Assembly: GCA_030704615.1 (NCBI GenBank)
Contig: CM060732.1
Coordinates: 11,222,001-11,286,000, forward strand
Origin: Takakia lepidozioides
Lineage: Eukaryota > Plantae > Bryophyta
Direction of reading: 5' to 3'
Length of the DNA: 64,000 nt
Shown here: piece by piece, positions 1 through 40,783 of the stretch
Position numbering within the stretch: position 1 is the stretch's first letter
Layout: every line of letters begins with the position of its first letter
Notes under the pieces: generated by a model
Databases searched by the model: none
Told to the model about the DNA's origin: nothing
Seen by the model: the letters and a program-made list of their open reading frames with translations, nothing else
Translations under genes and position numbers: made by a program

Positions 1-380
1 CGGACTTAGTCTGACGGTTCATAGGACGGTAGTCCCCACACATCCTCCTTTCTGTCCAATTGCCATAGATATCCTTCTTAGCTGGCACCGTTGCCGAGGC
101 ATACTCCCCGCTTGACAACTCCACCAATCCAGCTTCGAACAACTCCATAGTCCGTGACTGGATCAAAGACCTCTCCATATCACTATACTTGTAGGGCGTT
201 CGAAAAATTGGCGTGTCACTTGCCAAATCAATTCGAATCTCCTGGCCTTTCAAACTCCCCAAATCCTTCAAACCGAAGGCAAAGTAATTTCTATAAGCCC
301 TTAGAAATCGCTGGATCCTCCGCCTCTCTCCTCCGGTGACTATAGGTCCAACATCTGGTTCCCAGCTGTCCTTAGTGACT
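1..380 (-). pseudogene. N-terminal part of Ty3/Gypsy reverse transcriptase
   Basis: Minus strand 1-110 reads EYASATVPAKKDIYGNWTERRMCGDYRPMNRQTKS, matching the Ty3 RT start (SP..V.KK....R.C.DYR.LN). Confidence 0.85.
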
Positions 381-799
381 GCAACCTTGGGTACACCAAG
401 CTTGGAAGTAGGAGACGCATCCTTTGGTTGCTAGATAGCAACCTCTTGGGCTTTATCCGCCTACCCTGACCGTGGCGTAGCCTCTACTTGCTCCGCCATA
501 GCCACCTTGAGAACATCCTCTGGGGAAGAAACGTTCTCAACCTCTTCAAAAACATTGGCTACCTTGGCCTCCAACTGATTATCAGTGTATGGCTTTCCCC
601 ACTCCTCATACTGCTGCTTGAGAGATCCAATGACTCTCTCTCTTTGCGCATCTCATCCCACTTCTGCCATGGGTGTTTGCACCCCATGATCCTGTGCTCG
701 CCCCCACTTACTGCCTCCACCGTCCCGGTTGGCAGAGATGGTGCAATATCCAATGGAAGTGCAGAAGTAGCCACCAATGCTTGCAATCTCCGTTGCTCA

Positions 800-1725
800 G
801 CCATGCACAAGCCAATGACCCATATCAAGCAATTGAGATCCATTGCCTGACCCAACACCTGGCGTCGTGATGTCTCTTACAGAGCTGACACAGCTGTAGT
901 GCCCCTGGCAAATCCCATTGCCCGCTCTCGCTCATCCGCATTGGGCTCCACCAATTGCTATAGCACACTGTCCCAAATCAACCCAGGACCATTGTCTCGA
1001 AAAGCATGAGACAAAGGAAAGCTCATGAGCGTAGGCAAGGCTGTACGTGGCTACCCTACTCGATTTACCACTCCCTCTGTGGTTGCCTCCCTTGGTCCAA
1101 AATGCCCTCAACTGTGAGATTGGGGGGCCGTTGAATGGAATCGTATGCTCTCTTGAGCAGCTCTGGTGGTGCAAGATTGGTCCACCACAATCGAGGTTGA
1201 TGCGCTCGTGATCCCACCGCTGCTGCATCCAATAGCACCGCCAATCCAATCCAAGACCGCACCTAATGCACATTGGCCATAACCCTGGCCCGAGAGTCCC
1301 CCATAAGAGGAACATTCTCCAAGATATAGGCTAGAGGTTGCACTTGTCTCGTCTGCAAGTCACGCAACACTCTCAACATCTCAAATGCGATCGTGCATCA
1401 TGCAAGCCATTCCCATGACCTGCGAGAGAGTGTCCTTGGCAAGGCCATCCAGCTATCACCAAGTCAATGGCACCATGTCGGTCCAAATCATCTGCCCCCA
1501 GCAAGGTAATGTCTACTAGCAAGGCCTTTTGATACCCTTGAATTGATGAGAGAGACAACAACTCATGATACCGGTGTGTGAGCAAGGCGATGTGGCGCAT
1601 AGAAATACGTCGAGCTATCTCATCCTTCTCCACATACAAGTACTTGCGTACTTTAATCCCAGCTTGCAACAGTCCTGCAAGCCCAGTGCTCATGCCTCCA
1701 AACAGATCTAGCAAACAAATCCTTG
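800..1725 (-). pseudogene. C5-cytosine DNA methyltransferase domain (Dnmt3/DRM-like) embedded in the retrotransposon pol
   Basis: Motif I DLFGG (1694-1708), II YVEKD, III DI, IV GWPCQ (1436-1450), VI ENV (1311-1319), VIII PRLWWTN (~1178-1198), X RRQVLGQAMD (~838-867). Interrupted by frameshifts and a TAG at 1263-1265. Confidence 0.92.
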
Positions 1726-1857
1726 AGTCAGATGGTTGCCAGGTAATGGGCACTGTGTCCAAAGGAGCTAACTGAGGAGGTCCAGGTGATGTCACTGAAC
1801 TCCCCTCACTCATCAATGGAAAGACCTCCTGCCATGCTTGGTGCACACTCTCGCCTG

Positions 1858-3252
1858 CTACTCGCTGCAAATTCCCAACCGTACCCCACAGTGGAATATG
1901 CACAGGCACATGAGGAAGCAACTCAGCCTTGTATGCCAGTTGCTTGTCCTCATCAGGTGGTGGCCTATCATCTGCATGGCTATTGCCCTCCAAGAGCTCA
2001 CCACCCCAAGCCACCACCCTGAGAATGCAGCCAATGTGGGCATCATGTTCTTATGATCCACCGCTACATTCCCAATAAAACGCACTGGGAGCAGTGCACG
2101 TCGGCCATCTCCTGACTGCCACTCCGGCCTGTAAGATGTCGTTTCCTCCCAAAAATCCAAAGTAAATCCCATGGGGTACAACACAGCCCCACCAACAAGC
2201 ACATCATAGGACATCGCGTCCGTAACAATGGCTTTAGCTTTCATGACTGAGCTGTCCGTATGATGATCCGGCTGCAATCGAATGAAGAGCTCATGGCGTG
2301 TAATCCCTCGCGCCTTCTTTGAACCGCCCAGAGATGTTTGAATTTGGAAAGGACAAGGCTCCAAATCCGCCTCTATAAGGCCCAAGCCTGCAATTGCTGC
2401 TCTCCCCAACATCAATGGCTGTGCTCCTAAGTCCAACAAGACCCGCAGTGGCCTATATCTCCTCTCGGTTGAGCCACCCAATTGAAACACTCCATCCTGA
2501 TTGTCCACCAGGACTACCCCAGGAATCACCATGTTGCGCTCAATGGCTGGCCTAGCTGGCAACTCCTGCAACCTTGCAGCTGTCGTTTGCCATGGCGTAG
2601 CTGTGGCTGACTTCACCCTCGAATCCAAAGCATCCATAGACTGCACCTTATCTGCTATCTCCGCAGATAGTGCCGATGCATCACCACTCTCACAGAGTCT
2701 AGCTACTAGTCTGAACATAGCAGCTGGCCGAATCCCCGACATTGCAATGGTCATTGCAGAAAATAATGGAGCTTGGCAAACCGCCATAGCCGCCCCCAAC
2801 AATGTACTGGCTGCACCTTGCTTTGCAGCACCACCCATTGGCATTTCCCGAGCCACACCAACTCTCCCCAATGAAACTCGTGGCTCTACCTCTGACACAC
2901 TTGGGCGAGCGGGTGCCATTGACGGCGTAGGTGGCACTGTATCAGCCAATGTAAAGGATTGTGGAAGCCTTGTCTGACGACTTGTTTCTCCCCTTTGTGG
3001 ATCAAAATCCACATCCGCTCCTCTTGGCTCAGGAGCACGCGTTGCTGCTCGAGTGACAGCAGCAGTAGAATCCAATACATGCAATGGCCCTGCAAGTGCG
3101 GCTCCACACATGAAGCCCATAACAATCCGATCTTCCCTAGGCATGGGAGGTTGCGCAGGTGGGGCTTGAACCTCAAGCCTTGGAGCTGGCGCAACATGAG
3201 TAGTGGCCATGGCAACAAGACGTTGCTCTAGCTGGGCAAGTCTATCCACCAT
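1858..3252 (-). pseudogene. Retropepsin-like aspartic protease region of pol
   Basis: RVLLDLGAQPLML (catalytic Asp codon 2431-2433, a D-S/T-G variant) and downstream YDVLVGG. Confidence 0.8.
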
Positions 3253-3324
3253 GCCTTGGCCATGACCTTGACCCTGACCCTGTGCTCCTTGGTTTTGGTT
3301 ACGACCTCCACCCCGACCTCTGCC

Positions 3325-4431
3325 TCATCTACCTCTCTGGACTACATTGCCTCGTCCTCGGCCACCATTGTTCCCCTTGAACTGGCCTGGCCATAGCTTA
3401 GGATGCAAGCCATAACAATGGGCCTCGTCATGCCCATACTTTCCACAATGCCCACACTGTAGTTGTGTAGGCTGTGCCTGTGCCGGCCCTTTGTCTCTCT
3501 CCGGGCAATCCTTCTTGACATGGGGTCCTCCACAATCCCAACAAGTCACACCCGACTGTTGTTGGCCTGAGAATGAAGAAAGAGACCTCTGCATCTGCGA
3601 TCCTCTCTGTCCTTCCCTCGGCTTCACTTGAGCCCCCTTGTTGCCTTGAACACGTTGGGATAGTGGTTGTTGTTGGCTAGGAGCCCCACTTCGTTGTGTC
3701 TCCTTGCCAAACCCTACCATAACCACTTGCTCCTCTACCATATTGAGCTCTATCCGCTCTACCAGCAAAAACACATTTGCTAAGGTGGGTTGGTCCACTC
3801 GTACGAGAGTTACATCCCGCACCCTTCTCCTCAGCTCCTTGTCCAGGATCCCATACCAGAACTGGACTGCCTGAGCTTCTGTAACCCCTTGGGTTACGTT
3901 TATCAAGCGCCTCATGCGACTCCTCAACTCCTCGAAGAACTCCACAACTGGGTTAAAGGCAGGCACGGGTGCTGGTGCTGCAGCAGGAGCTTGAGTGGAT
4001 TTCCCAGCTCCTGTACCACTTGTCCCACTACTAGTGCTTGCAGTTGGAGATGTTTGTGTAGCTGCTGGTGTCACCACTGCCTTTGTGCCTCTAGTGATGG
4101 AGACATAGTTAGGTGACCAATACTCTCGCCACTCCTCAATCTCCACCGCATGTCCCCGCCTAAATTCATGGTAATCATCCATGGGCGGCCCCTCAAGGTG
4201 CTGGAATAGCCCCTTCCACGCCATAAATGGCGTAAACAATTGTGGATTGTGCATTTGCTGCAAATCACACCAACTGTCAAACTCTTGTATGAAGTCATCA
4301 AGCTCAATGGTGCCCACAGCTCTAGAGTACCTACGTGGCCCCTTGGTAGCTCCATACATCTCCTCCATTGTGTCCCACAACAATGGCACGGCAAAGCAGA
4401 GTCCTGGCGAGCACAGTATCAGCCAGAACAT
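3325..4431 (-). pseudogene. gag: Ty3/Gypsy gag
   Basis: ORF 3325..4431 has two zinc knuckles, CWDCGGPHVKKDC and CGHCGKYGHDEAHC, and a G/R-rich tail. It is out of frame with the protease ORF. Confidence 0.85.
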
Positions 4432-4914
4432 AGATGTCGTGCTCGAGTAGAGGCTCAGATAAGGTCTTCTGGGCCCAATGCTTTCGATTAAACCGGCGAG
4501 AATCCTCCTGACTCCGAGTCTGAACCTTCCTCAGAAGACACTGAAGGTGAAGGTGGCCTAAACCGCACACCTTGTCTTGTGTACCCACTAGTATCGCTGG
4601 TGCTCGTATCGGCACTCCCCTCAGCAACTGGTGGCACCACCGTGATGAAAACTCACAACCCAACCGGTTGTCAACCTGTCTCTAAATTTCCCCACTTTCC
4701 ACAAGGTAACTGCGTAGGCTAGTGGTTCAAGCAGGAATAATAGGTTTCTAACGTAGACCTGTACCTGCACCTGCATCCACCGCAAGCACTCCTATGGTCT
4801 GCTGGTCATCAACCCAGCCTCACCATAGAAGAAACACTGGTGGTCTTGCTGGTCATCACTCCAGCCTCACCACCGACAGCATACTCTAGGATTGGCCGGT
4901 GATCAAATCCAGAC

Positions 4915-5225
4915 CAATCTCCTATAAAAAGTCCGACGCATCTGTATGAATCTCAAACGGACGGTCGAACTCCGGGATTTTCAAGACTAGAGCTTCCGCC
5001 ATCCGCTACTTCAACTCGGCAAAAGCTTGGCCACAAAAGGTTTTCCATACCCATACCTTGAATTTACACAGAAGGTCTGACAGCGGCCCCGTGATCTTGG
5101 CGAAATTTCTCACATACTTTCGGTAATATGAGGTGAGTCCTAGGAAGGATCGACTCCCGGAACCAAAGTCAGAGGCTCCCAGTCCAAGATCGCCCTCACC
5201 TTTCTGTCATCTCCATTGGAAGAGT
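4915..5225 (-). pseudogene. Ty3/Gypsy RT-RNase H connection fragment, separate from the DNMT element's own pol
   Basis: KVRAILDWEP ... GLTSYYRKYVRNFAKITGPLSDLL ... PEFDRPFEIHTDASD. It lies upstream of gag, so it comes from another copy or a rearranged piece. Confidence 0.8.
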
Positions 5226-8100
5226 GAGACGCAATATGGGTGTATGGGTGTGCGAGTGAATGTTGAAAAGGCCTACATACCCTTGGGATAGAGTTGGTGA
5301 CTTCGTCCTGGGAGAGGAGAGTTTGGAGGACTACCCCACTCAATTTTGGGTGAATGTCCATTCTAAAGTGGAACCCGGCTCGCGAAAAGCACCCGGAGCC
5401 AACACATTTCTGTCCAGTATTATGTGTGCACCATCCTCAGTCCTTTTGACGTTTCATTGCATGTCTGTTGTCATTTTTTGTTTCACGAGTTCTCTGATTT
5501 TATGCTTCCTCAAGTCGTTGGATATCGATTTTGAATGTTCTGTCCAGGTATCAATGCTGCTACGGTCCTGATGACAAGCGCACCAACAAGGCAATAGTGG
5601 AGGATCCAAAACAGAAGCGTGGAGGACCTCTTGTGGGTGCTGGAACATCTTGCCCTCATAAAGGCCCAAAGAGAAAGAAGTCGGAGTATGGAGAGTCTTA
5701 CAAACGTGGTTGCCAATGCTGTTTCAAGGTCCAGCAATGCTATCTCACCCCTGACATCTGTGTCCTCACGTACTACAACAACATGAAGCATACAGATGCG
5801 TATGGGAAGTCCGCAGAGTTCAGGAACACCCGCCACGCCTATGCACCACACATTAGAATTGAAAGCCTGGGTCGTCGAGTGTTTGTGCCGAGGCCTGTCG
5901 GTCGCCCAAATCATGATGGAGCATAAAGAGCACGTGATGAACAACACCGCCTTGGGCGATGCATGGACCCGCGATGATTTCTTGTTGGAGCATGATGTTC
6001 GCAACCTTGCCGAGAAACGTGCGTGGCAAACCTTCAAAAAGCACGCCGATGATGCAGAGAGTGTGCGCATGTGGAGAGACCAGAATCCTGTGTCCGTTTT
6101 TTTCTATCAAGAGGAGAAATTAGAGCCAACATTCGAGCATTTTGATGGAGATTTGACATTCACTATTGGCATACAGACTCCGTGGCAGAAACGACGAATG
6201 CTGGAACTAGGACATGACCGTATCGTTGCATGTGATGCAACCTTTGGGAAATCATGACAGGGTACTATTCGAACGATTCCATGGACTTGTACGAGCATGA
6301 TAGCATAGCACCATGCAACATTCACATAAAATTTGGTGTGCTGACCCTTTCTGTATGTTTTCATGTGTACGTTGCGGAAGACCGAGGGGCAGACCCATTG
6401 TGAAACGTTGCAGACCTCATCACTCTTATGAAGTCTTCTCGTGCAGAACTGAGCGGAATTTGCATGCTCTGACCATCTTACATTGTGCATTCCAACAGTT
6501 CCCATTGTACACGTTGATGGTCTTCGACAAGTGGTTGAACGGTATACCAGTTGCCTATATCCTATCCGCGAGGAATCGGACAAGAGACCTGGTTCCGTGG
6601 ATGAGAGCCTTGCGCGATTCACTCCTCGCAGATTTGCCGAGGTGGCGACCCAATGCCTTCATTGTGGACGATGCCGAAGCAGAAATCAACGCTATTCGGT
6701 AAATCTGTTGGTCCACAGCACCGGTCCATTGTCAAGGTCCACTGCAGCAGTCCATTGCTACAGTCCACTGCATTACTACAGTCCACTGGCAGACTCCTGT
6801 GGCGAAACCCGATGGCAGTTCGCTGGGCAAATCCACTGGTAGTCCGCTGTCAAGTCCGCTCATCAGTCCCTTGGCAAGTCCGCTGGTAGTCCCCGGCAAG
6901 TCCGCTCGGCTGTCCGCTGTCAAGTCCGCCGCCAAGTCCACTCAGCAGTCCCTGGGGTCGGCCGTCCGCTGCCAAGTCCACTTGGCAGTCTGCTGTGGCA
7001 GTCCAATGGGGCAGTCCGCTGATGCAGTCCGCTGCCCCAGTCCTAGCTAGGGGAAGTCCAATGGGGAAGTCCAATGGGGTTATTCCAGCACATCAACGTC
7101 ATGGCATTGTACTGTCCATTGGGCGAGTCCAGTGGCTCTGCCCGCTGATACAGGTTGCTGTTACAGTCCACTCCGACAGTCCACCATTGCAGTCCGATCC
7201 CAAGACTCTAATGTGTACCATGTGTGTTGTGCAGAATTGTTTTTGAAGGAATACTCATTTTCCTCTGCCTTTGGCATGTCCGCAAGGCATGGGTGAAGCA
7301 ATCATGCAAGAAAACGAAGGATCCGGTGACCGCTGTAAACTTGTTGAAGGATATGGGAGACCTCATGTGAGGGGGACCACGCAACGAGAAAAGAGCGCTT
7401 CGGTGGGTTGCAAGGACAATCCGTCGTATGAGGTCAAAATACCCGAAAGGACATAAATTTCTTGACTATATCGAACAGTACTGGAAGCCCAAAATAGCAA
7501 TGTGGTGTATAGCAGCCCGCCATGTCCCTCATGCGAGCCAAGACACAAACGCAAGCATTGAGGCATACCATGGAAATCTGAAGGCAAGACTTGCCATGGG
7601 GAAAGGCAAGATGAGTGGTCGTAGAGTGGACTGGATTATATGGGAACTCATTGGCCGTGTGCTAACACACTACTGGTATGCAATCCATTTGAAGACCCAC
7701 GGGTTCATAAGAAATGACAAACACGAAAAGTACATATCCAGTTCTATACTTGCGGCACGAGACATTCCTGCTGAGAGTGTTACTCTTCCCTTGGGTCCTG
7801 GTGAACCAGCCTACGTTCTCAGCAACAACCACCCCGGCACAACATACATTGTTTACAATCCTGATTGCGATTGGGGTTGTTGCACGTGCCCATGGGCAAT
7901 GAAGGGAAACTTATGCAAGCATCAGGTCCGTGTCCTGAAGATGCTTCACCCTGACCTGCAGGATGGCCTCCTTGTGTGCGCTTGTGGCACGGCGCTGGGA
8001 ACCATTCATGGAGGATTACCTAACTTGCTCTTGGGCAGTGGTGCTGGCGTTTTGCAGAGAACCAGCAAGATGGTGTCTGCACCTGCACCTGCAACACATA
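5225..8100 (+). pseudogene. MULE-derived transposase with C-terminal SWIM zinc finger (multi-exon, frameshifted)
   Basis: IPWDRVGDFV; KRGCQCCF; GIQTPWQ...ACDATFG; FPLYTLMVFD...GIPVAY...FIVDDAEAEINAI; LCLWHVRKAW; TNASIEAYH; SWIM CTCPWAMKGNLCKH. Introns at about 6261-6498 and 6699-7234. Confidence 0.88.
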
Positions 8101-8104
8101 TATA

Positions 8105-8370
8105 CTCGAAAATTCGCAAGATTTCAGGTCGTGTAGATGTCGCGAAGAAGACAATATAAGTCTGCAATGCCTCGAAAAGAGTCAAGGTTTCACGTCCTGT
8201 AGGTGTCACGGAGAAGACAATATAAGTCTGCAATTCCTCGAAAAGAGACAAGGTTTCACGTCGTGTAGGTGTCACGGAGAAGACAATATAAGTCTGCAAT
8301 TCCTCGAAAAGAGACAAGGTTTCACGTCCTGTAGGTGTCACGAAAAAGACAATATAAGTCTGCAATTCCT
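8105..8370. repeat. 66-bp tandem repeat, about 4 copies
   Basis: The anchor ACAATATAAGTCTGCAAT recurs at 8151, 8217, 8283 and 8349. Confidence 0.95.
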
Positions 8371-13743: not shown

Positions 13744-16700
13744 CTAATCTTCATCATCCTCATCTATGTCTGGGTCACTACATGTATCACTGTCTTCATC
13801 ACAGACTTCATCTTCTCCAAGGGTTGGCTGAACATCATCACCACGTATACGGGGTGCTCGGAGGTACAAGGAGGCCACCTGCTCTGGAGTAACCGGTACC
13901 GCTCGGCTGCATGTTGGGCCATCAGTAACCACAGTCTCCTCTAGTCTTTGTGGGGCTAACAATCCTTCCACTTCCGCCACATCATCATTATCAATTGATA
14001 TGTCGCAGACCACTCTACGTGCTCGGGGGCTCTTCTCCAGGACGACTTTCCACCCCGGCTCCTTCACACAATCAGAAAAAAACACTTGATCAACCTGGCC
14101 AGGAAACACAAAAGGTTGCTCAGAAGGTGGAAGCATACGGTTAAAATTGACAAGTGTGAAGCCAGCATCATCCTGCTTCATTAACATAGGTTGACGACCC
14201 ACGCGACTCGCCCGTACCCACGAACACAAAAACACTATAGGCTGTGTTTGGCCATAGTCAATTTGCAAAATCTCCCTTATAAGACCCACATATCTTGTAG
14301 GTTCATCCATGTCATTGCCTGAATTGTTGGTAATGGGCTGGTGCTGGAAAACAGATGAGACTCCACAATCAAAAGACACCATACTTGTTGTGTTCATGCC
14401 GGGGGATATAACCCTGTAATGGTTACCATACGCTGTCATACTCTTGAATGACAGGGCAGTAAATGATGGAGGCCTTGAAAGATCCAGTAATTCCTCACGT
14501 GTTGTAGGATCAAGCCCATCTGATTGAATTGAGAGATGATCCCGTACACCTTGAGGGAGCCAAACAGCAAATGGAGGACAAGGATGCAAATCAGGAGGGT
14601 ACTGAATTGTCGTGGGATTGCTCATGCCTTCCAGCCCTTGCTCCTCACGAAACAAGCGTCGTCTGGCTTCTATCCGTGTGGACTCTGCTTCATATATCCT
14701 GTCACAATCCGAGGGTCAGCCAGGAGATTGACAAAGGTGGCGTGGGAGATTTGAAAAGACGCCATATGCCAACTAATGATAAATGACTAAAACTTGGAAA
14801 TCTGAATGTCAATGAAGTAGATTTCTTACCCCAACATGACTGATAGACGAGGATGGTTCTGAATGATGTACTCATGTACAATCTCACACAGGTCATTCAA
14901 TTTTCGGGCTTTAGAACTTCCTTCCACAACTTCACGTTCCACAGATTCTGCCTCATCTGCATCCCACACCCTTCGTACACTTCCATCAAATCCTGCCATA
15001 TACTCTGTGCAAAACCCCAATGCTTCTTCAAATTGGTATCCTTCTGCCATGCTCCCCTTGGGCCTTGCCATGTTTCTTACGTAGCCCTTCATATCTTTCA
15101 TTGCCCGCTCCATGGGGTACATCCAACGAGATGCTACGGGCCCGCATAAGTACAACTCATCCACTAGGTGAACAACCAGATGTGTCATCACATCAAAAAA
15201 TGATGGTGGGAACCTTCTCTATAAGACACAGAGTGAGAACTGCTTCAGTTCTCAATTCCTCATACTCTACAGGATTCACCACTTTTGCACACAACTTCTT
15301 AAATACACGACATACTCGCAAAATGGCCCTTCGAGGACCACTTGGCATGAGCCCACGGATAGCAAGCGGTATAATTTGCTGCATGAGCACATGATAGTCA
15401 TGTGATTTCATGCCTGACAACTTCTTCTTCACCACATGCTTTTTGAAAGCTGATGCGTAGCCTGTTGGCACTTTCAAGTTCTGCACAATCTCCAGAAAGA
15501 CTTGTAACTCAGCCTCAGTGAGGACATAAGGGGCAGGAGGCATAATTAACGTATCTGCTCTGTCAGGATCACGTTGTAGCCACAATTCCGGGCGCATCCC
15601 AAGTAGCTCCAAATCACGGCGAACTTTCAATGTGTCTTTCTCACCAAAGATAGTTTTAATAATATTTTCAGCCAAGTTCTTCTCGCAATGCATTGCGTCA
15701 AACGTGTGGCGGATGAGGAGACCCTACAAAATGAACACATAAGCAATTGAGCATTTACTCATCACAATTTAAATAGAAAACGCAAAAATGTACACAGCCA
15801 ATTTAAAGGCCATGAAGGAATTACCTCCCAATAAGGTAAGACATATAAAATTGACAATCGCTTAACTCCATGAGTTTTTACTGGGTCTGTCCTGCTATCT
15901 GGCGTCCCTCCGTTTTCCACCCATGCAGTGCGAGCTGTTGCAAGGTCCTTGATTTGTGTTCCAGTCTGCGTTTTTGGAGGAGTTCCATGCTCAGTAGCGC
16001 CATTGAACATTCTTGACCTTCTATATGGATGATTGCGGGCCAAAAATCTTCGGTGGCCTAGGAAAACAATTTTTCCACATGTGTGTAACTGCTGTGAAGT
16101 CACCCCGGGTCCACAAGCTGGACAACCAGCATAACCTTTCGTCACTTGACCTGAGAGCAAGCCATATGCAGGGTAGTCATGGATTGACCACATCAACATT
16201 GTCCTCAGTGTGAATTCGCGTTGACCACGAGGACGGGAAACATCATGAGCTGCAATCCCTCTCCATAGTTCCAATAGCTCTTCCACTAGGGGCATCAGGT
16301 AAACATCTACGTTGTCCGAGGTAACAGACTCCTTACCAGGAATCAGTAGCGCTAACATGACAAAGAACTTTTTGGTCATTAACCACGGAGGCAGATTGTA
16401 ATTGACCAAGAGAACGGGCCATGTGCTCCAACTTGTGGATTGAGCTCCGTAGGGATTTACACCGTCTAAGGCCAATCCAAATCGCAGAGATCGTGGCTCT
16501 GTAGCAAAATCCGCAAATGTGGTGTCAATGTGTCTCCATGCTTTGCTATCAGCTGGATATCGAACCAACCCATCCTGGCTCTTATGTCTGTCGTGCCATG
16601 TCATGAGGTTAGCGATCGATTTACATCGGTATATACGTTTCAACCTTGGAATGACAGGGAAGTGTCGCAATACTTTCTTGGGCACACTTCCACGACCTGG

Positions 16701-17035
16701 AATGTAACGGGAACTGCGGCACACTGGGCAAATGTCTACATTCTCATACTCCCCACGGAAGAGTACACAACCACGCTCACAGGCATGAATCATCGTGTAC
16801 TGCAATCCCATCTTGGCAATCATGGTTTTTGCTTCATAGTGAGTTTTCGGCAATGAATTCTCTTTAGGCAAAAAACTCTTACGCAACAATCCCAGAAGCT
16901 CATCCACAAATGCATTGGTGCACTTGTGGATAGTGCATGCGTTCAGCAACGTCAAAGTTGCTTGCAGCCGGCTGATGGAGCACCCTTCAAAAAGTGGACA
17001 TTGCGACGCTCGGAAGAGTTTATCATACTCGGGAT
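13744..17035 (-). pseudogene. CACTA transposase (TnpD/Tnp2; Transposase_21, DUF4218, DUF4216-type regions), 5' truncated
   Basis: IHACERGCVLF...CPVC; LRFGLALDGVNPY; STWPVLLVNYNLPPW; HDYPAYGLLSG; RHTFDAMHCEKN; GMKSHDYHVL; GPVASRWMYPMER; PFVFPGQVDQVFF. Frameshift near 15195. Confidence 0.95.
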
Positions 17036-17039
17036 CAAC

Positions 17040-20000
17040 GTACAGGTGAGCATTCTCAGTTTGTTTTGCCTGAATTCAAGGATTTGCTGCTTGCTGCCTA
17101 TATGTATGTGTAATCACCCACATTGTACTGGGGGAATTTCTTTTCAGGGCAAGCACAAGCGCACTGGATCCACGATCCCTGCTGCTAGCAATGGAGATGG
17201 CGCCCACAAGAACGCAGGAGGTGGCCCTAACTCTCCCAACATTGTGGGTTCTGTGCCACCAGTACCCCCACCTTATTATGGTATGCCTCAGTACCCACAG
17301 TCTCGCACTCAGTATGGTCAGGGTCAATATGGTGCTCCTCCATATGGGCAGTATGGCGAGTATCCTCCTCCACCATATTTGCCACCCCCTAATAGCTATG
17401 GGGGTGGCAGGCCACCGGAATATCCTCCTGCTTATGGACAGTATGGCCAGTATGGTCCTCGGCCTTCTGGCCAACAACCATGGCCACCAGTCCCTACTTG
17501 GGAGGATCCTGCTTTGAATTCTCCTGAGCGCACGGAGGTCTCTGAAGGAGGGGAGGGTGCCGTTTCAAAGAATGATAGAACCAATGCTTTAAGGAGGGCT
17601 AATAGCTCAGCCAAAATTGAAGCTGCTAAGGTCAAAGAAGAGAGAATAGCTGCAGGTCTTCCTCCCACGGTGATTTTGACGAACCTCAAAGGAGCCCCGT
17701 ATGGTCAGACCCGGAATGTATGGCACGCTGCCCTTAAAGGACAGGCTTATCGCAAGCTAGATTGTTCCCTTGCCATCAACAACCAACCTGATGAAGTTGT
17801 ATACAAAATCAGAGATCACCTGGCTAAGCTATTTTCATATACGCCGCACGAGTTAAAAGACTTCCACCTAAAACAAACAATTGGCAGAATAATGAAGAGC
17901 CAGCGTTATGAAGCACACATTGCGTGGTTGGGTGGTAAGGGGAAACCCATTACTGTATCTGATGAGGTATGGAACAAGCTTGTAAGTTACTGGCAGACAG
18001 AGGTGTTCCACAAAGTGTCGGGCAACATGAAGAAGGCAAATGGTGCAATTCTGAATCCTACCAAGACTGGCCGTGGTGGGAAGGCAATGGTGGAAGCACG
18101 CTTGGTAAGTGGCATCATCACGACTCTGTATTTTGTTCCTCATTGAATTGCTATGTGTATATAGTCAGCCCTCACATTGCTTACTGACTTGTGGCATGGG
18201 TTTGTTTGTGGCATGGATTAATTTGTAGGAAACACTATCAGGGTGCCCTCCTACATTATATGAAATTCAAGAGGGTTCAGTGTCGCGGTTGTCAGCTGGG
18301 AGTGACAGGTGGGTAAGTGTGTTTTCCACGTTTGCTAGAGTGGTTGCTGCATCATAGGTTGCTAGGGTTTTTTTCACGGCTTTTGGCCTGGGTTTTCTTT
18401 CCAATGGTTGTTCATGCTAGGTTTTTTTGGTTTGATTCATACTTGGGCAAGTTTTCATGGATTGGTAGGAGGGAAGTCTCGCATATTCTACAGTAGTTGG
18501 CAGGATGGATGGCTTGGACAGACTGGTGGAATCACAAGGACGTGACATGGCAGAATTAAAATTACAGATGCAGAGTATGATTGAGTACCAGAAAGCCATT
18601 GTGACCAGATTGGGGATTAATCTACCAGGCGTAGGACCAGTGATATCTACGATGGATACGTCTGCTGTGACAGTATCAAAATGTTTGGAATCCCAATTTT
18701 AGACGGTAACCGGTGCTCACTCTAAGCCCTTATGTCTTCCTATCACTGATGATCTTTTGAATTTGACCGAGCAGCAACAGGATACAGGGAAGGCCAACTG
18801 TGAGGTACAAGTGGAAATTTAGCCCTTGCCACGTACAAAGGCAGTAGCAGTCCAGGGGGCAATGGTGACAGAGCCGCCGGGCACACCGGATTCTGGTATG
18901 CAGGTATGTGGGAGTTTAGATGGGGAGGAAGATGCAGACGGGGACAAAACAAACAAGCAAGTTGCTTTAATTTCTCCTGCTCACATGTTGAAGCCAAATG
19001 TCAGTTTACTTCCTGGACCAACGAGGAAGCATTTACTAATTCTGGACTTAAATGGTCTGTTATGTGAATCTTTTCATTCTGCTAATGGGCCTGCATCCCT
19101 TCCCAAAGGTTTTGTGGGGAAGATGTGTGGCAAGAAGATGGTAGTTTTGAGACCACGCTGTTATGACTTTTTGCAAAAGTGTTTTGAACACTTTGAGGTG
19201 GCGGTGTGGTCTTGTTGCCAAGCTCGCAACTTCTTCCCAATGGTGGACTATATTTTTGCAGCCCACACTAACCTGGTTTTCCAGTGGGATGCCTTCACTG
19301 TGACGAGGATCCAGTCCTCCCATGCCGTAAGGGGTCTGATTCAAAGCCATTATATTTCAAGAACTTGTCTACAGTGTGGGCAGACTGGCCAGAATGGACT
19401 TATGAGGACACTGTTTTTGTTGACGACACACCAAGAAAGGCGGCAAACAATCCTCCCTTCAGTGGGATTTTTCCAGAGCCATGGAAGGTGCAACCAGATT
19501 CACCAACTGATGAGTATCTAACAGAGGTGTTGTGGCATTTCTTGTGGAAGGCATCGAAAGCTGCTAGTATTCCCAAGTTTTTGGAGTCTCAGCCTGTTTT
19601 CGGACAACAACCATACAACACTGCTATTGTGAAGGTACAAACATTCTGACAGTGCTTCAGAGGCTACATTTTTGTGGGTTCATTCATTGCATTGCTTTCC
19701 TGGATGCTTCTCCTCGGTTGCTTGATTAATGCTAGGTTTTCTTTGCAGCTTTTCATGTTGGTTTTTTTTGTTTGATTCATACTTGGATTTTGTTTCTATT
19801 CACTATTCATGTTTGCTCATTGCTTTCCTGGTTGATCTCTGGTCTGTGACACAGGAACTTGTGACAAACCAAGGTGATATTGTCGACAAGCCGGTACAGA
19901 CGAGGGGCAAGAGTGTCGACCCGACGAGTAGCCCCCCAAAAGAGGTCTCACCACCACTGGAGACTGCAAATGGAGTAAGTCCAGGCCGTTGTCTTGTCTG

Positions 20001-26751: not shown

Positions 26752-28399
26752 CTAGGGCGCTAATCCAGGCCCTGGATGACACAAGATTCTATTGGACTCC
26801 AAAAGTATGATTGCAGAGAACGCAAGAAGGCCCACTAGAGTAAGCACAAGAGCAAAGTAGGTCTTGAGGGGGGGTCCATCCTTCTTCAGTTTCTTGTCAC
26901 CTGCATGCTCAACAAAATCAAATCGCTTTCCGAAAGCCTTCAATGCGTCAATCTGATCGCTCAACACCTGGAAGTCCATACATAGTTCTTGGTTATGAAA
27001 ATGCTAGGCATGTGATCAGAGTCAATTAGGACAAATCTCATAAGCACATCTATCATTCATTTGCCCAACAAGATTTTTCTACAATACCAAAGCTTGCCTA
27101 GTCAGGTTGAGTAAAGAACGGGCCATCATCCGCAATAAATTAAGAGGATATGCTCTATATGCTCCAACGATCACAGGGGAAGGGATGAGTTGATGGTGTG
27201 AGCTTGAAGTTCATGTTCTGTCAACATCATAAATGACTTCCCTTCCCTCCTTATGACAAAGTATCTCTAGGATCCCCATGTCAACTTTTAATGGTAACTG
27301 GACCTTCATACATGAATTAAACTATAATTCCTCAAGATTTCAACAGACGGACTAAGGGAGGGCCACCAACGTGATCCCTCCGAAAATCTTACTATCCCAA
27401 TAGCCAACGCGTTGCTTTCCCAAGCATCTCAACCCCCTCTCAAAGGCCGACAAGGATTAGACACTTTCATCTTTAGGAACCAAATATGTTGACACTACAT
27501 AGCTTTGTAGACTAACTACCAGGTCTCCAAGTCAAAAAGCTGGTTGGGCAACCAAGAACATCAACTTTCTATGTTTTTCCACTACAAACCATTAGGACCA
27601 GCTAAAGACAGCAGCTGCGATGCTAAGGACCTAACTACACCAGAATACCATTGGATTGAGAGTGCACCTTGGCATATTCCTCTTCTTTCTCAGCACCTTC
27701 CTTCCACCTCATGAAATCCAAAAACTTTAGAACGACGCCACCGACGGTTGCAATGCACGCCAAGAGGGAGAGTGTGAAGGGGCCAAGCCAGTTGTGGCAA
27801 CGGAGTGCGCTCGACTGTGCAAAAGCTGTGAGCACAACACCTTGAAACACAATGAAATAGCCGATCAACTGATATATTTCGTTCTTCACGTTGTTCCTTA
27901 GGGCCTCCTTACGATCAATCTTGGAACGCGACAGATTAAACCTCTTTTCCCAGTCCTCCAGTATCAACTTGAGTTCCGGGTCGTCAGCAATTTGCGCTAG
28001 GCTTCTAGCCTGACTTGCACTGGTTGGAGGACTCTGCCCTTCAATTGCAAGAGCTTTACAAACCGCATTAGCTTCCACAGCACCACATTTCTCTATTCGG
28101 ATGCGAATGTCAAACTTATTGAACGCTGCACTATCGCTCAAATACTCACACAAGCCTCCAAACGCAGAACTGTGGCCAGGCCTTTGCTCGTTCACCGCGG
28201 CGTTATGGTCTTCACGAGCACTTTGAAGACTGCTTGCAGAAGTCTCCGCACGCACAGACGACGAAGTACTATCGTCGACGTTGGCCGATACGCAGACCGT
28301 GCCTGCTATACATCGATCATCTGCGTGTCCACTGCCGGACAGTTTGAATTCTTGCATTCTTCCCCTGGAATTCTGCGTGCTTTGCATCTCTATCGTCAC
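26752..28399 (-). CDS. Plant-specific multi-pass membrane protein of unknown function, 2 exons (28399-27668, 26967-26752)
   Basis: Phase-0 GT-AG intron 27667-26968 gives an open frame. NEIYQLIGYFIVFQGVVLTA...CHNWLGPFTLSLL, about three hydrophobic segments and a C-terminal ILC, as I recall from an uncharacterised land-plant family. Confidence 0.8.
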
Positions 28400-31300
28400 T
28401 TGAATCTTTAACTTCCTCCCCTTCCACCCCCCCTCCTTATTTGTGACAACTACTGTTACTGTGATGGTTTGTCCAGTTTCTGTATTTTAATGGGTGCGTA
28501 CGAGCCCCCTCGTGGACATCCAGCGGGGCTAAGTTAGTAATGAGGCAGCAGCTGCAGCATCCGCACCCCACTGCTGTTAGTTTATACAGGCTCAGGCTGG
28601 CCCTGCGCATTCAGGCAGCGGTAGATATCTTCAAGCCCGCACACATGTCTTCACCTCTATACGGACGCTGTCGCAGATGTGATGGAAACCTGTCCCTGTC
28701 TTCAGCCCATGGCTGTCCTAAGTCGCTCTACTAAGCTTACACCCCGGCCCTGCCTCCCGAGTGACCTCTCCCACCTCCTCCATTTGACCTTCAGCTTTTC
28801 CCACAACTGTTCCTCTGTACAGCATCAACCCAATCGCCTGAAACAAAGAACAAGGGAATCCGATTTTCCACAGATATTTCCCAAGCATACAGTTTTCAAG
28901 TACGTGGATGTTAGATTTTATTGTTTTGACCCTGATAGATGAAGCTGCTTGGAGACTGTAGTGTCCAGAGCCATGCCACTTGCCCGTATGATTAGAAAGA
29001 AACTAAGGCAAGGACGCTAGCAATCCACGGCCAAGAAATGCAGAGACGTCCCCTCCCGCGGTCCTTTGCAGCCCCGCCAGTGTCCAACTACGCCATCCTG
29101 TCCAGTCCATCCCATCACTCCAGCTTGCTACCATGCATTGCCGCCCGTCTCTCTAATCCAACTTGCTGCCATCCTCTCCTTCCGCTCGCTATGTGCAGCC
29201 TGGCGCCATCGCCCACTCACGTCTTCGCAGGGAGCACGGTCCGTATATAGCTGAGGAATAGTCTAGTTTAGTATCATTCCGAGCCTGTCCACGCGACAAC
29301 TCACCCCTACCCCCTCCGTTCGTCATCCATCCATTCCCGTTTCTGGGCAATAGCCACCTCCCTGCTACTGGCGTCCTCTTTGCACCCTTGCCATTGTCAT
29401 CCATTCTGCACCTCTGACATGATTTGCCACTTGAGAACAACTCGTTCTCACGTGTTAAAACATTGAAATCGTCAAAATGGGAGGTTTGTGGACGGTTTGC
29501 ACTTTCTGCATTTCACAGCATTTTATCTCCACCCCTTGTTTTTCTATCTGCCAGTGCCCTCTGACCCGTGGCCGTTATAAGCAGGTGTGGCGGATTGTGC
29601 CACTTTTTCGGCCTAATTCTCAGGCGGAATCGGCCACCCAGGGCAGTATCGGCAGGGATGGCCGATTCCGCACAGAGGACAGCATACTTTCCGCCACAGT
29701 GGCCTTCGTTATCGGCCATCAACCCAGCCTCAGTCCTCTGAGGCTCGCCCCGTTTATATCCTCTCCGGAGCTCTGAATTTGGGCAATCAATATGGGATAA
29801 TCGAAACTCAATCATATTGCGCCACGTAGCGGAGAGATCCGCCACACCTGCATTCAACGCCAGTGAACGGGCCGCGTTGGCCGACTCTGTCCTGTGCACG
29901 GCTATAGGGCTCGCCCAAAGGCCGCTTACAGGACAGAATCGGCCAAACACGGCCCGTTCTCTAGTACTATATGTATGTCATCGCATGTCATCACATGCCG
30001 GCATGGAACGTTGCCGGGAAAGGCGTCCGGCAGGTCCCCGGAAGTGACTAAAACCGGCCGGTTAGGGGCGCTACTGCCGGGAAACTCTCCTGCACGTCCC
30101 CAGCCGGAAACCGGAACAAGGCAACCCCTGATTCATTGGGTGATGTCATTAAAATGAATAAGGTGCAAATGGGCCACTAGGACTGCCGAGCACCGTTGGC
30201 CCTCTTTCACTAACTTGGCACGTGTTAGAGGTGCAGAATGGACGTTTTCACCGCAGGTGCAAAGAGGCCACCATACCTCCTTTAAGTTAAGTACGCAGAG
30301 CGCAGGTGGGTAGTCGGCACCACCATGCGCTCCCTGCTGCTCTCCGCTGTTTCAGACAGGCCCTCCAATGTCCATTCCTGGAGTCTCACACACCCGCATC
30401 TGGACCTATACACTGATACAACTGTGAAGCACTTGGGTGGCCCGGCCCATGCGTGCACTATCCAGCTAAAAGCTACCAGTTGCTGTGAAACCTTAAAAAA
30501 GGGGAGAGTGTGGGCCCGGGTATTCCCAAGTGTGACTATTCAACTTGATGATTCGGTGTCAGCGGTAGTCGGCAAAAGGCACAGTATGTGGTATCTAGTT
30601 GCTAGTCTTGCGCTAATGTGTGATGGAGCTCGTAGGAGATCTGGAGGCCCTGGGATGCGTCTGGTGTGACCACCTAGTGCTTAGTATTAGGCTGGTTTTA
30701 AAATATGTATTCTGGAAACTTGGGCCCTCGCAGCTCGTTTACGATTTGGGGATACTTGTGTACTAATCCCCGTATCACTTAAGAGGAGAAGAGGCAGAAC
30801 CCCTGTAGGAGGAATCTTGCATTTCTGGAGGAAGCCCTGTAAATCGTTAGAAAAGGAATCGGTCATACTCACCACCTCTCTGGTTTTGGCTCGTCAGTTG
30901 TATGGTTTTCGGTAAGCAATTCAGGCCCCCAAACCCACCTCTCCCAGACAGATCTAGTTCTCTGCTTCCTTGCAGGCAAGGAAGTCGGTGTGGTATAGGC
31001 AACCTTAAATGTCACTCATCAGACATTCACGGGTTAATTAAGGTACATCCAAAATGGGTTAAAAGCTCCATCTGTGTTTCAGCAGCCTGACTCATTTGAT
31101 CACAAGAACTGGCAGGCTGCAGATTTGGGTTCCCAAGCTGTTTTATTCATTCAAAAGATTGGTAACTGCCTCTTTTACGCTAAAACTCCGGTTGGCTTCT
31201 ATCATTTCATTTGCTAACCCGCCCGTTGCCCAGCTGAAGCTGCCCGAACCTAGAAGTAGGGGTGAACCCTAGCTAGTAGTAGGAGACATGATCGTGGGCA

Positions 31301-34168: not shown

Positions 34169-35230
34169 ATCTGGGATGGAACTTAATAGTTAAGTATTAA
34201 GTGGGGAAGGTACATCAGGAAAAAACAATGGTGGCCTGCTCTCTCCTGAGGGAGGAGCCAATAGTAAAATGAATTTACGTACCTATACCGAGTTCCATTT
34301 GCCACATAATTCCAATCATACATTTTGGGCCGTCGGGACCTAGTCGGGGGGCGGGGGCGAGCTTTAGGGACCCTACCTCAATGGCTGTCCCATAGTGTTA
34401 CAGTACTAGACTAGGTGGAGCTCCCAGCCTCCAGGAGAGTTTAGGGTTTTGAGTATTTGACAAGCTACCCTGCCTGCCGTACTACCGTTACAGTAAAGCT
34501 GGACGTTCGAGTTGAGAAATCCGAGCTACTGAAGCTGCCACGGTGCGTAATGCTCTACAAGTAGAAAGAAGAATTTTATAGGAGTGCAGTAGAAGCTAGC
34601 GTTCTAAGGTAGAGCTCTAATTGATGTTGGAATCAGGTTCCAGCGGTTTCGCACCAGGACAAAGAGAAATAGGCTCTCAGTGACAACGTGAGTATGAAAT
34701 TTATCAGGTGATAGGGGTTCTATGTTGTGTTTCAAGGAGTTGTGTTCATCGCTCGCGCGCAAGCAAGCACTCTTTTGGTGGGTCCTTCGTACTTTCTCAC
34801 TTGGCCTTCATTGTGACCATCGACGGCATCGTTCTAAACATCTTGGATTGCATCAGATGGAAGAACGGCGTTAAGAGTGACCGACAAGCTTCGAAGGTGC
34901 ACTCTCCTGTTTCGAGGTAAAAAGGATTCAAGTTTATTTCGGTTTCGAACGTTAATTCGCTGGACTCCTTGTTAAGCTATGTAAATGGTCATCGGTTGTT
35001 GGGGAGAAACGTAGAAAGCCAGTTTTCTGACCATCCTTGGACACTCGAGTATGAGAACCGACTGTAGAACTCACATGTGCAATGTCCACGCCCGTCGCTT
35101 TCATGACTGAGAAAGTGGATTGTGAAGCGGTCATACTGTCTCCAATGGCTCCCTAGAGCCCACCCCCGAAAGGAAGGCGTATCCGCAAGGGAAGGAGGGC
35201 TCTAACTTCGGTTGGCGGCATCGCATCTGT

Positions 35231-37303: not shown

Positions 37304-40300
37304 ATGTGGCCCACGAGGATAGCGTTGCATGCCGCGGCAGACCGGGTGAGGCCCACCCTCACAACCAGAGCACATGTCTTGGCTACCCGTTTTCAGCTTC
37401 AGAATGGCTCCATCTTTTTGGAGAAAGAGGTGTACGATTTGAAAGGGAAGTTGTTGAAATACTCTTTCCAAAACCGTGATGAGACGGCTCATGTCAGCCA
37501 GTGGAGAGTGCGCCCTGGTCGATACAGAGTACTTGGAGAGCCTCGGCGAAAGTCCCTTGGGTCATATGTGACGCCCGGGACTGCTGCTTCGGTTGTTGAA
37601 GACAAGAGGGAGGTGGTGGTGAAAAAATAACAGACGTCCTCCACTCCAATCTTTGAGCTTTCGGATTCGTCCGATGATGACATAAGTGAAATTCCAAATC
37701 CAGTCCTTCCTACTGTGGTTGGAGAAGCTGACGAAGAAGAGATTTGTAGTGTCATTCCAAAACTACGGGCGATGGGAGGAATGGCTGGATTCAAAAGTGA
37801 GTTGCGAGGAATTGATTGGGAATCTTTGAAGCAGGTGCCTGTGAAGTTCTTGCCAGAGACTTTTGATGGCGATATCCTATTCGAGCTGCCTCCTGCTCCG
37901 CGAGTTGGAGGTGTAAGAATCATGATGCATGGAATGGACAAGAAACACGATGGGCACCCGTGATGCAGAACAAAAACATCCAATATTCAGAATGATGACA
38001 AGCTTGTTTTCAGGAGAACAGTTTGCAATGGACACCTTAGGTGTGATAATTTGAATTGCAGATACTTTCTTCAGTCTGGGGTTCATAATCAAAGCGAATG
38101 GGAGGGTCTGGCAGAAAATCCATTCAGCCCGGGACTGCCCCACCACCGGCAAACACTTTCGTCTGCAAATTCTGCAAACTTGTGCCATCCTGCTTAGCGC
38201 TCTGCGGAGCAAAAATGTACTATGTTGTCCACCGTTTGAAAACAATGACAAGAGTTTGTGTGCATTTCGGATTCCATAACCATCCTGTCTCGAAGGGGGA
38301 TTACAGGAAGAGTGTTGAGACAGTATCGAGGTTGATTAAACAGGAGTTGAGGAGAAACCCATCCGCAACAACATCTGTAATTGCTCTTGGCGCAAACAAG
38401 TCCTTCTTGGAAAGCCATATTTTGAGTGAAGGGGATTCTGTGGGGACTAAACTTGACGATGCAGCATTGGACCTGGTCATGGATCATTTCTCCACTTTGA
38501 GTTCACCTAACATTCGGCATCAGATCAATGCATTAAGAATGGGCTCTGGTATCAGAGGCTACATAGACAACATTTTGGAATTGAAACGAGTGAGCAAGTA
38601 CGATTACATCTAGGACAATGTATTCCCAGGTCAAGGTGCCATCAAAGTTTTTCTTTTCAAAATGTCGACTGTTGGGGAGGGCAGTGGGGTTAGCCTCGTG
38701 AAGTGGGTGCAGAAGACTGGGGACTTGCAGAACTGTTTTCTTATGTTTGATCATGTGAAACGAGTGAAGGATTGGACGACAATGGCTTGTCATATCTACG
38801 ATCCAGTGTACCAACGAGTTATGACAATTGCAGTTTGTGACATGCAATCCGAGGATACGGAATCCCAGAAGCTCATGTGGAATTCCCTGATACGTGTCAT
38901 GGGCTGCCATCTCCAAATTTTGCAGGTTTCATGGCGGATAGTGCTCAAGCAAATTTCAATGCTGTTCGTATTGTCTTCGGATCGGGCGACCCAAAAGTGC
39001 CAATGCGAGGAAGAGAGCGTACATGTCTATTCCATTGGACACAATCTCTGGAAAAACATACAAAGTCGGACATCAAACCAGAGATGCAGACTCAGCACCG
39101 TAAATTGTGCAAAGAGTACAAAGATGCTAGAACAATGAAGGAGGCGGACACTTTGTTCCAGACAATTCGTGCATGGTGGTTCTCTTCTGGAGCTGCATCA
39201 CTTGAGAGTATGAGAGCATTGGAAGATTGGCTGACGTTTTGGCACTTACGGTATAGACAGTGGGGAGCAGCCATGGCAGTGGTACGAGGCTTATATTTCT
39301 TGCTTTATTCATACATTTATTTTCCATTTTATTGTCTTCTCGCTTTCTTTATGTTGTTTTCTGTTCACTGTTTTGAAGTGTGGTTCTCCACTTTGCAGAA
39401 CATGTCCATGAGGAAATGGCGGACATGCCATCTTGCAATTTGGCAGAAACTGTGCACAACGCATGGATGCAGCAGTCTGGGAAACGAGGTTGGGATTTGT
39501 ATGTGGCAACAACAGATGATTTGATACGTGCCTTGCAACAACAAACCCGATACCGTGATTTCTTGCGAGGTGGGGTTGGTGACAAGGGTCCGGACAAATG
39601 GGAGTTGATGTTGCGTGCTGCAAACAGATCTGGGGATCCAATCAAGATAGCACGGGCGGTGAGCATGTATGCCCAGGGAACGTCACTTGTTTCTAGAGTT
39701 CCACATCTTGAAGGGGAGGAGAGATTCGGCTCCTGTAAGAAGAAATTGAACACTCCACCTGGTTCGGATTCAGATTCGCACAGGGCAGACCGTGATAACT
39801 TCTCGAAGCCTCGTGTTCCCCTGCATGACAGCTCCATGTCCGGAACCTCCATTGTGGAGGAACCTCCAACACGACGGCAAGCTCCAGCATCAAACAGTGC
39901 CACTAAAATGGTGCAGGAGAGAAACAACCCCCTTGATGTGTTTGAGTCCGCATGCCCCGACCACGTTTGGTACATAGAACGCACAAGTGTAGGGTCTCGT
40001 GTGAAATGTACAGCGATCAGGGCAACTAATTTCGAGAAGTGCACTTCATCTATATCCAGAGGTGGTGCCCGAACTCCTGCTCCGACTTTCACGGGTTTGA
40101 TGCGTCCATACGGTCAACCAGAAGCCAAGAACGACAAGTTATGGTTCTGCGCAGATGATAGTGCCAGATGTGTGCATGGAACTGTGCGTCCTTCCGTAGT
40201 GATGAAGCCATCTCCTCCAACCGTTTGGCCCGTGAAGGTGGGAACACATCTCAGATTTCAGGAGATTGAAATGCTGGAGGAGGCAGGCTTTTCCCTTGCG

Positions 40301-40783
40301 AGACAACCCCAACTCCATGCATGTGCTACTACTTCTGCATCCTCCCGGGTCCCCTCGGCAAATCCTGACTTGTGGCCAACCAAACGAGATGGAAAGCTCG
40401 TTCGGCGTGCCCCTCCAACCACTAAACACTTTGGCAAAGTGGAGTCCGCAAGAATGCTCCAAGCTGGTGTTGGAAGCACCACGGAAGTACCCGATCCAGG
40501 ATATGGTCGGGTATTCACAATCATCATTTCCACATCTGCTGTTCATGACAGGACCTACGACATCACGGTTTCCAATTTCCCCAATTGCACATGTCCTGAT
40601 TTTGTGAATATGCTATCAACCAGTTTAGGCAAGAGAGGTAAATTCATACCTTGCAAACATTTGTATTTCATATTTTTGAAGAGGATGGTTTGTGATCCCA
40701 AACGTGACAACTTCATTCACCAGGCCACTATGAGTTTCAACGAGGTCGATACTCTATTGCAGCGGGATACAACACATGGGTAG
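37304..40783 (+). pseudogene. MULE-type transposase with GCM/WRKY-like Zn region and SWIM finger
   Basis: DKKHDGHP*; CNGHLRCDNLNC; CKFCK...C...C...HFGFHNHP; FLMFDHVKRV; GFMADSAQAN; RTCLFHW; NLAETVH; SWIM CTCPDF...CKHLY. Several premature stops. Confidence 0.85.

Follow-up and report, generated by a model that had tools for sequence, protein, structure and literature searches.

A C5-DNA methyltransferase (DNMT) domain placed between the protease (PR) and the reverse transcriptase (RT) of a Ty3/Gypsy retrotransposon raises the question of whether the enzyme is an accidental passenger or a maintained component of the element and, if it is maintained, what it would do there. DNMT-bearing retrotransposons are known from dinoflagellates and one charophyte, in which their purpose is not genetically testable. 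The locus lies at the start of the window, a term used here for the whole 64,000-nucleotide stretch that was analyzed. The initial annotation had recognized an intronless set of DNMT motifs, proposed that the architecture extends into embryophytes, and suggested looking for a continuous PR-DNMT-RT frame and for a dN/dS below 1 in the DNMT.

The element is a decayed Ty3/Gypsy copy on the minus strand, whose translation gives the order Gag, protease, DNMT, and pre-RT region (Table 1). The canonical, unpermuted order of the motifs and the intronless position between protease and RT held up, based on exact minus-strand positions (1720–781) and on tblastn with intact relatives, which covered the domain colinearly in three frames and required no intron. 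The Pfam model DNA_methylase scored above its cut-off on the piece spanning motifs I–IV (E 1.1e−5). Positions 4368–2017 share 46% identity with Marchantia Mp_4g09160, and the protease is recognizable by LLDLG at 2439–2425 (catalytic Asp at 2433–2431), with D-L-G in the window vs. D-S/T-G in relatives.

Table 1. Features of the decayed element at the start of the window (all on the minus strand)
Feature	Position	Strand	Remarks
5′ untranslated region	4369..4920	(-)	covered by family contigs
Gag, two zinc knuckles (CWDC 3543, CGHC 3456)	3328..4368	(-)	likely start Met 4368
Remainder of Gag and aspartic protease	2017..3324	(-)	frameshift near 2016
DNMT3-like C5 methyltransferase domain, motifs I–X	781..1720	(-)	2 frameshifts, 4 stops, motif VIII change
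Motif I, LDLFGG	1711-1694	(-)	
Motif II, VEKD	1633-1622	(-)	
Motif III, VDI	1516-1508	(-)	
Motif IV, GWPCQ	1450-1436	(-)	
Motif VI, ENV	1319-1311	(-)	
Motif VIII, HQPR	1202-1191	(-)	
Motif IX, ERERAMG	933-913	(-)	
Motif X, GQAMD	852-838	(-)	
ORF1 C-terminal tail	434..780	(-)	2-nt frame break near 634; stop 463-461
Conserved in-frame stop TAG then CAA CCA (CARYYA type), predicted readthrough site	425..433	(-)	TAG itself 433-431
ORF2 start: pre-RT region and first RT residues	2..430	(-)	continues beyond window

The window copy is dead. Its Gag ORF has an in-frame stop at 3327–3325, and its protease site reads D-L-G. Two frameshifts interrupt the DNMT domain, one near 1383 and one near 1075 (the latter with about 11 codons missing), as do stops at 1265–1263, 1053–1051, 960–958, and 879–877. 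The first Arg of motif VIII is replaced by Gln (Arg in 134/141 aligned domains), and the active-site residue set (motif I FGG, motif IV Cys, motif VI ENV, motif VIII RxR, and motif X) is kept in the family but not in this copy. The breaks at 2016, 634, and 463–461 are not present in other copies covering those sites in the sequencing runs of the host: one extra base is found at 2016 (24 contigs, run X1), the 2-nt surplus at 634 is missing in 21 contigs of run X1, and at site 462 the window differs from all 30 run X1 contigs listed there. Positions 425–433, on the other hand, had no variant at ≥ 15% in runs X1, X5, and X6, each of which covers the site. A 5′ end repeat was not recognized in the window, and none of the repeats known from the peat-moss-type family described below matched the 5′ untranslated region.

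The DNMT is a feature of a high-copy Ty3/Gypsy family, of which the window copy is one member. With the motif I–IV piece as query, 23 proteins were retrieved among 544 candidates, including eight from Marchantia polymorpha and three from Calypogeia fissa; a profile search extended the set to Sphagnum fallax, Closterium, Haematococcus, and Chromochloris, relatives in Scenedesmus and Hariotina were found through look-ups, and one relative used as query against cluster representatives had 305 matches at E < 1e−30. Mp_4g09160 belongs to a cluster of 18, all 15 listed members being from Marchantia and five of them full-length ORFs of 1278–1281 residues. By their names, these Gag-PR-DNMT ORFs lie on chromosomes 4, 5, and V, intact copies being Mp4g09160, Mp5g06330, and MpVg00370. 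Metagenome contigs provided 94 further relatives, of which 80 were retained (loci with the prefix L below), with the order Gag-PR-DNMT-RT-RNase H (RH)-integrase (INT); in L065, Pfam identified protease, RVT_1, RT_RNaseH, rve, and PHD. The window domain is 71% identical to that of Marchantia, 70% to Sphagnum fallax (182 positions), 69% to Calypogeia, 39–40% to Closterium, and 35–41% to chlorophytes. The DNMT stands between protease and RT in 39/39 sequences that have both (window included), a count that is circular, as DNMT patterns had been used to retrieve the loci. In run X1 of the host, 23,773 contig records fell on window positions 1–6000, and their summed depth, which is not a copy number and shows that the DNMT does not drop out, was of the same order over the DNMT (82–175 thousand), the protease (174–238 thousand), and the RT start (131–164 thousand).

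The proposed extension into embryophytes is confirmed by the Marchantia, Calypogeia, and Sphagnum fallax proteins, and since these named proteins carry the architecture themselves, it is independent of the window's own host. The occurrence in land plants is new as far as our literature search reached, which found none, although supplements and subscription papers may hide liverwort sequences under the term "streptophytes". Marchantia is not named in the accessible parts of the supplements of PMC5890265 and PMC12344493, and no land-plant DNMT-Gypsy element is described in the accessible text of 10.1101/363937, PMC12344493, PMC11982613, PMC9516144, or PMC13398078.

By sequence and predicted structure, the solved proteins closest to the family domain are DNMT3A and DNMT3B, before DRM2 and the bacterial enzymes. 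In a phmmer comparison with solved structures, DNMT3A came first (6e−12), followed by DNMT3B (1e−9), DRM2 (2e−4), HaeIII (4e−4), and HhaI (4e−3), the sequence match to DNMT2 being weak (E 0.007–0.02). The predicted structure of an intact relative (pLDDT 91) had DNMT3A as its best Foldseek match (E 9.5e−20, TM 0.65/0.84). Capture of a host DRM gene was ruled out, as the motifs run from I to X vs. the circular permutation of DRM, an argument already made in the initial annotation, and as the DRM2 match is weaker than that to DNMT3A; capture of a bacterial Dcm was likewise ruled out, DNMT3A being nearest by sequence and fold. The catalytic Cys is present in 139/141 domains, as is the motif VI Glu; of the two Args in motif VIII, the first is kept in 134 domains and the second in 136. 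In 65/141 domains of the wider family, motif IV reads E-C in place of P-C, with the Cys itself retained. Host DNMT3 carries PWWP/ADD-type targeting modules; the Pfam scan of ORF1 detected none of this type.

Purifying selection keeps the DNMT across the family. Its dN/dS is 0.10–0.12 in the three pairs among L063, L065, and L067 (intact or near-intact), i.e., below 1 as had been anticipated, equal to that of the protease and higher than that of the RT (0.04). Values across lineages were 0.18–0.21 (0.18 for L034 vs. L006), and 0.52 was obtained between two decayed copies. In the peat-moss-type family, which is decayed, singleton variants were neutral (ratio 1.11) and common DNMT variants had a ratio of 0.57, a weaker constraint than in RT (0.40), RNase H (0.32), and integrase (0.29).

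A continuous PR-DNMT-RT frame was not found; instead, an in-frame stop separates the DNMT from the RT in 21/21 distinct copies and in all lineages of this clade that were inspected. This unbiased count comes from 25 indel-free linkers of 531 nt (21 distinct), in which the stop lies at codon 88 (14 TAG, 7 TAA) and the next most frequent stop codon occurs in 3/21; a pattern search for a stop followed by Gln (54/62 sequences match, 8 do not) preselects and serves as context only. Across long stretches, the intact element L065 contains exactly one stop over 974–8226, which separates a 1369-codon Gag-PR-DNMT frame from a 1047-codon RT-RH-INT-PHD frame, and L063 exactly one over 2475–7804, with the same layout from the protease onward. 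Linkers of five lineages measure 531, 573, 639, 645, and 654 nt, all multiples of three, and that of the window 671 nt, or 669 nt without the 2-nt surplus. The Marchantia and Calypogeia ORFs stop at the homologous place, 98–100 residues beyond motif X. In the wider group the stop is not required, since P0029 and P0290 (sequences of that group) have DNMT and RT in a single open frame.

A single in-frame UAG followed by CARYYA is present in the window and L034 (TAG CAA CCA), in L063 (TAG CAA TCA), and in L065 and L067 (TAG CAG TTA); the peat-moss type is off at the last base (TAG/TAA CAA CCC), and L060 is also off the pattern (TAG TAG CCA). According to the accessible text of PMC2754532, CAR YYA after UAG is essential for readthrough in TMV, which reaches 6–10% in transgenic plants. 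Because the conserved stop places the DNMT at the end of ORF1, the enzyme is likely produced at the level of Gag, and the UAG itself is likely a readthrough site to Pol, as predicted from its sequence context. Several observations speak against readthrough: the peat-moss type, which is the largest family, deviates from CARYYA, has TAA in 7/21 copies, and has an ATG soon after the stop; some relatives lack the stop; and the RNA structure downstream of it is inconsistent. Folding of the RNA past the stop gave z of about −3 in L063 and L065 and close to 0 for the other three sequences (window, L034, L064); only the first two folds beat their own shuffles. All five folds (window 333–420 (-), L034, L063, L064, L065) pair a stretch shortly past the stop with one about 85–105 nt downstream.

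The end repeats were observed in relatives, the 3′ end of the window element lying beyond the 64-kb stretch. In peat-moss-type loci, Gag is preceded by a repeat, A, that measures about 340 bp and begins with TGTCA. At the 3′ end the order is B-A-B in L018, L043, L068, and L076, or B-A to the contig end in L008. The layout A-coding-B-A-B is thus full in L068 and L076 and partial in L018, L043, and L008. The B|A junction is GACA-GC-TGTC in L008, L018, and L068, and a 4-bp target duplication was found in 4/4 loci tested. A DIRS element was ruled out by the rve integrase and the 4-bp target duplications vs. a tyrosine recombinase without duplication. In nine loci (L016, L019, L025, L028, L031, L044, L050, L051, L070), the 3′ end consists of a lone B followed by flank, and in two of these the target duplication is intact; these single-B copies are possibly products of B-B recombination, similar to the formation of solo LTRs.

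From the observed domain order, selection, stop, and ends, we infer a life cycle with readthrough, co-assembly, cDNA methylation, and a particular integration route. Gag-PR-DNMT would be the bulk product, and the conserved UAG would be read through at a few percent to give RT, RNase H, and integrase. Gag-PR-DNMT would then co-assemble into particles, in which the protease would free the DNMT, and the packaged enzyme would methylate the new cDNA de novo before integration, probably with a CG bias, so that a new copy would arrive marked as self or silent and hence be tolerated. For integration, the DDE integrase would cut at the internal palindrome B|A, a sequence similar to a circle junction. 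We assign a probability of roughly 0.6 to this reading as a whole, i.e., a DNMT packaged at Gag level that methylates cDNA, with Pol made via readthrough. Suggestive in its favor is the CG observed/expected ratio of the window element, which at 0.46 was the lowest of the segments measured (0.59–0.94 in five other transposon segments); this ratio is, however, confounded by age and host methylation, and peat-moss-type elements were no more CG-depleted than their flanks.

The same enzyme, if active, could instead enter the nucleus and methylate existing copies or competitors, thereby damping bursts of transposition, a self-limitation raised as a possibility by de Mendoza et al. in the accessible text of PMC5890265. 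Gag-level expression would indeed supply far more enzyme than two cDNA strands require. However, the fixed place behind the protease suits packaging into particles and ORF1 has no PWWP/ADD-type module by Pfam, and we regard a chromosomal target as unlikely.

A non-methylating or RNA-directed role, in which the domain is retained for binding cDNA or genomic RNA in the particle or at integration, appears rather improbable given that the catalytic Cys, the ENV Glu, and both Args of motif VIII hardly vary, that the fold is nearest to DNMT3A, and that DNMT2 is matched weakly by sequence. The Symbiodinium DIRS-Dnmt3 domains methylate CG in yeast, although the Klebsormidium domain showed no activity there (both from the accessible part of PMC5890265), and the E-C variant of motif IV indicates a drift of the active site in some members of the wider family.

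It would also be conceivable, with a still smaller chance, that the DNMT acts on cDNA and that Pol is made by splicing, reinitiation, or an internal promoter. Ogre-type elements, for instance, have an intron between gag-pro and pol, and the peat-moss-type family has an ATG two codons past the stop. Against this, the frame is preserved over five linker lengths, the stop is single, CARYYA recurs, and no Met occurs for about 105 codons past the stop in L063, L065, and L067, which disfavors reinitiation, nor early in L034 or the window. Finally, a one-off neutral insertion of a host DNMT3/DRM retrocopy, to which the heavy decay of the window copy might point, is refuted by the recurrence of this architecture in 80 loci as well as in liverwort and moss proteins of named species, by intact Marchantia ORFs, by a dN/dS of about 0.1, and by a comparable run depth with no drop-out of the DNMT.

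The conserved stop, with the predicted production of the DNMT at Gag level and readthrough to Pol, sets the family apart from its nearest known counterpart, the Klebsormidium nitens element KnitGypsy-Dnmt3 (de Mendoza et al. 2018). As described in the accessible text of PMC5890265, this Ty3/Gypsy element carries a Dnmt3-related domain that has no introns, keeps its motifs unpermuted, retains the catalytic residues, and has a Ka/Ks < 0.2, and its repeats are split in the DIRS-like manner (A-coding-B-A-B). No methylation by the domain was seen in yeast, an outcome that the authors call inconclusive. The bryophyte elements share the Gag-PR-RT-RH-INT backbone, the intronless unpermuted domain, and the low Ka/Ks, as well as the A-coding-B-A-B ends, here in peat-moss-type relatives; no Klebsormidium-named sequences appeared in the protein searches, and the likeness rests on the published description of KnitGypsy-Dnmt3. 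The element is of a known kind, and the difference is the conserved stop with a likely Gag-level DNMT: KnitGypsy-Dnmt3 has the DNMT in one ORF with RT and RNase H (same accessible text), a feature the family lacks, since its DNMT ends ORF1 before the stop, while a readthrough product would restore one ORF. The hosts also differ, being liverworts and mosses, with a high copy number in the host of the window. No report of a readthrough layout for DNMT-Gypsy elements was found in the literature search, in which supplements and subscription papers were only partly visible.

More distant systems share single features. SymbioDIRS-Dnmt3 and SymbioLINE-Dnmt are also retrotransposon-borne C5 methyltransferases, the DIRS domains methylating CG de novo in yeast (PMC5890265, accessible part), but on dinoflagellate DIRS and LINE backbones vs. 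the DDE integrase, PHD finger, and 4-bp duplications found here. EpiLTR and DAM-LTR are LTR elements with their own DNA methyltransferase, unlike ours an adenine methyltransferase or a DNMT sister to DNMT4, and the visible text of the preprint (bioRxiv 10.64898/2026.05.21.726589) sets them apart from "streptophyte Gypsy-DNMT3". Plant host DNMT3/DRM has a DNMT3-clade catalytic domain as well, whereas the element's domain is intronless, part of a polyprotein, and, compared with DRM, unpermuted. The stop of rice RIRE2 lies between gag and pol, unlike the one described here, which is downstream of the protease and the captured enzyme. UAG followed by CAR YYA, as in Type I (TMV-like) readthrough, is present in part of the lineages described here, the peat-moss type and L060 departing from it. 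In the accessible text of PMC2754532, a gypsy element, RIRE2, is cited as a readthrough candidate.

The wider green-plant group was compared by FastTree trees that were midpoint-rooted and built without host DNMT3 or Klebsormidium sequences or a clade test. The DNMT tree comprised 134 of 247 domains after thinning, six loci, and the window, and it grouped the window with Marchantia, Calypogeia, Sphagnum fallax, and L034 (support 0.998), a position that makes a bryophyte host of the window likely. Among the 247 domains, those of named chlorophytes are located between RNase H and integrase and those of Closterium and bryophytes between protease and RT. The RT tree, in which the window is represented by a piece of 113 residues, separates these two layouts, with the lineages carrying the stop in one clade (support 0.96), and is broadly concordant with the DNMT tree. 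For the chlorophyte RNase H-DNMT-integrase layout no paper was found. Many sequences of this group (e.g., P0054, P0265, P0258, P0237) have a C-terminal PHD finger. Single relatives carry an extra domain, P0048 a PTM/DIR17-like Tudor domain past the PHD finger and P0090 a G-patch. Lacking a real root, the trees are as compatible with a single capture and a later relocation as with two separate captures, and they point to no donor or order of events. We tentatively suggest, at somewhat less than even odds, an ancient green-plant Gypsy clade from chlorophytes to mosses and liverworts, in which one DNMT3 lineage occupies two polyprotein places: the land-plant branch would have moved the DNMT to Gag-level expression via a leaky stop, and its particles would pre-methylate cDNA, which would then integrate through a cut in a palindrome that lies internally, between the permuted end repeats.

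The intact Marchantia polymorpha ORF1 copies, multi-copy genes annotated as "hypothetical protein", bring the purpose of DNMTs in retrotransposons within reach of a genetic model in which CRISPR and methylation mutants are available. Many transposons are de-repressed in Mpmet thalli, according to the accessible text of 10.1101/363937. From the conserved stop, an unusual dose of the enzyme is predicted, one DNMT per Gag. Bryophyte methylome studies count host enzymes only and may have overlooked a family of de novo methyltransferases, and with it a source of methylation in bryophyte genomes.

The rest of the window holds almost no host genes, and Rfam gave 0 matches in it. Directly upstream of the element, 4925–5211 (-) is a truncated RT/RNase H piece of another, apparently more abundant Gypsy family, and 43 contigs of run X1 continue differently at 5211. 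A host-like gene for a two-helix membrane protein lies at 27635–28486 (-), from a streptophyte family without a Pfam name; its part 27638–28060 had 8 matches among 27 candidates, the clusters reach only "Streptophyta", and recognition was just under the threshold. A 71% inverted match to this gene at 34779–34906 may be a second, partial copy on the other strand. Decayed elements at 5500–8159 (+), 38089–40783 (+), 13744–17075 (-), and 60319–62600 (-) comprise SWIM-finger elements, which we take to be Mutator-like, CACTA remains (Transposase_21, DUF4216), and a LINE-like stretch, the Mutator-like and LINE labels being given without a Pfam hit. Amid further transposon remains, 18823–19521 (+) is an ORF with a NIF-type phosphatase domain.
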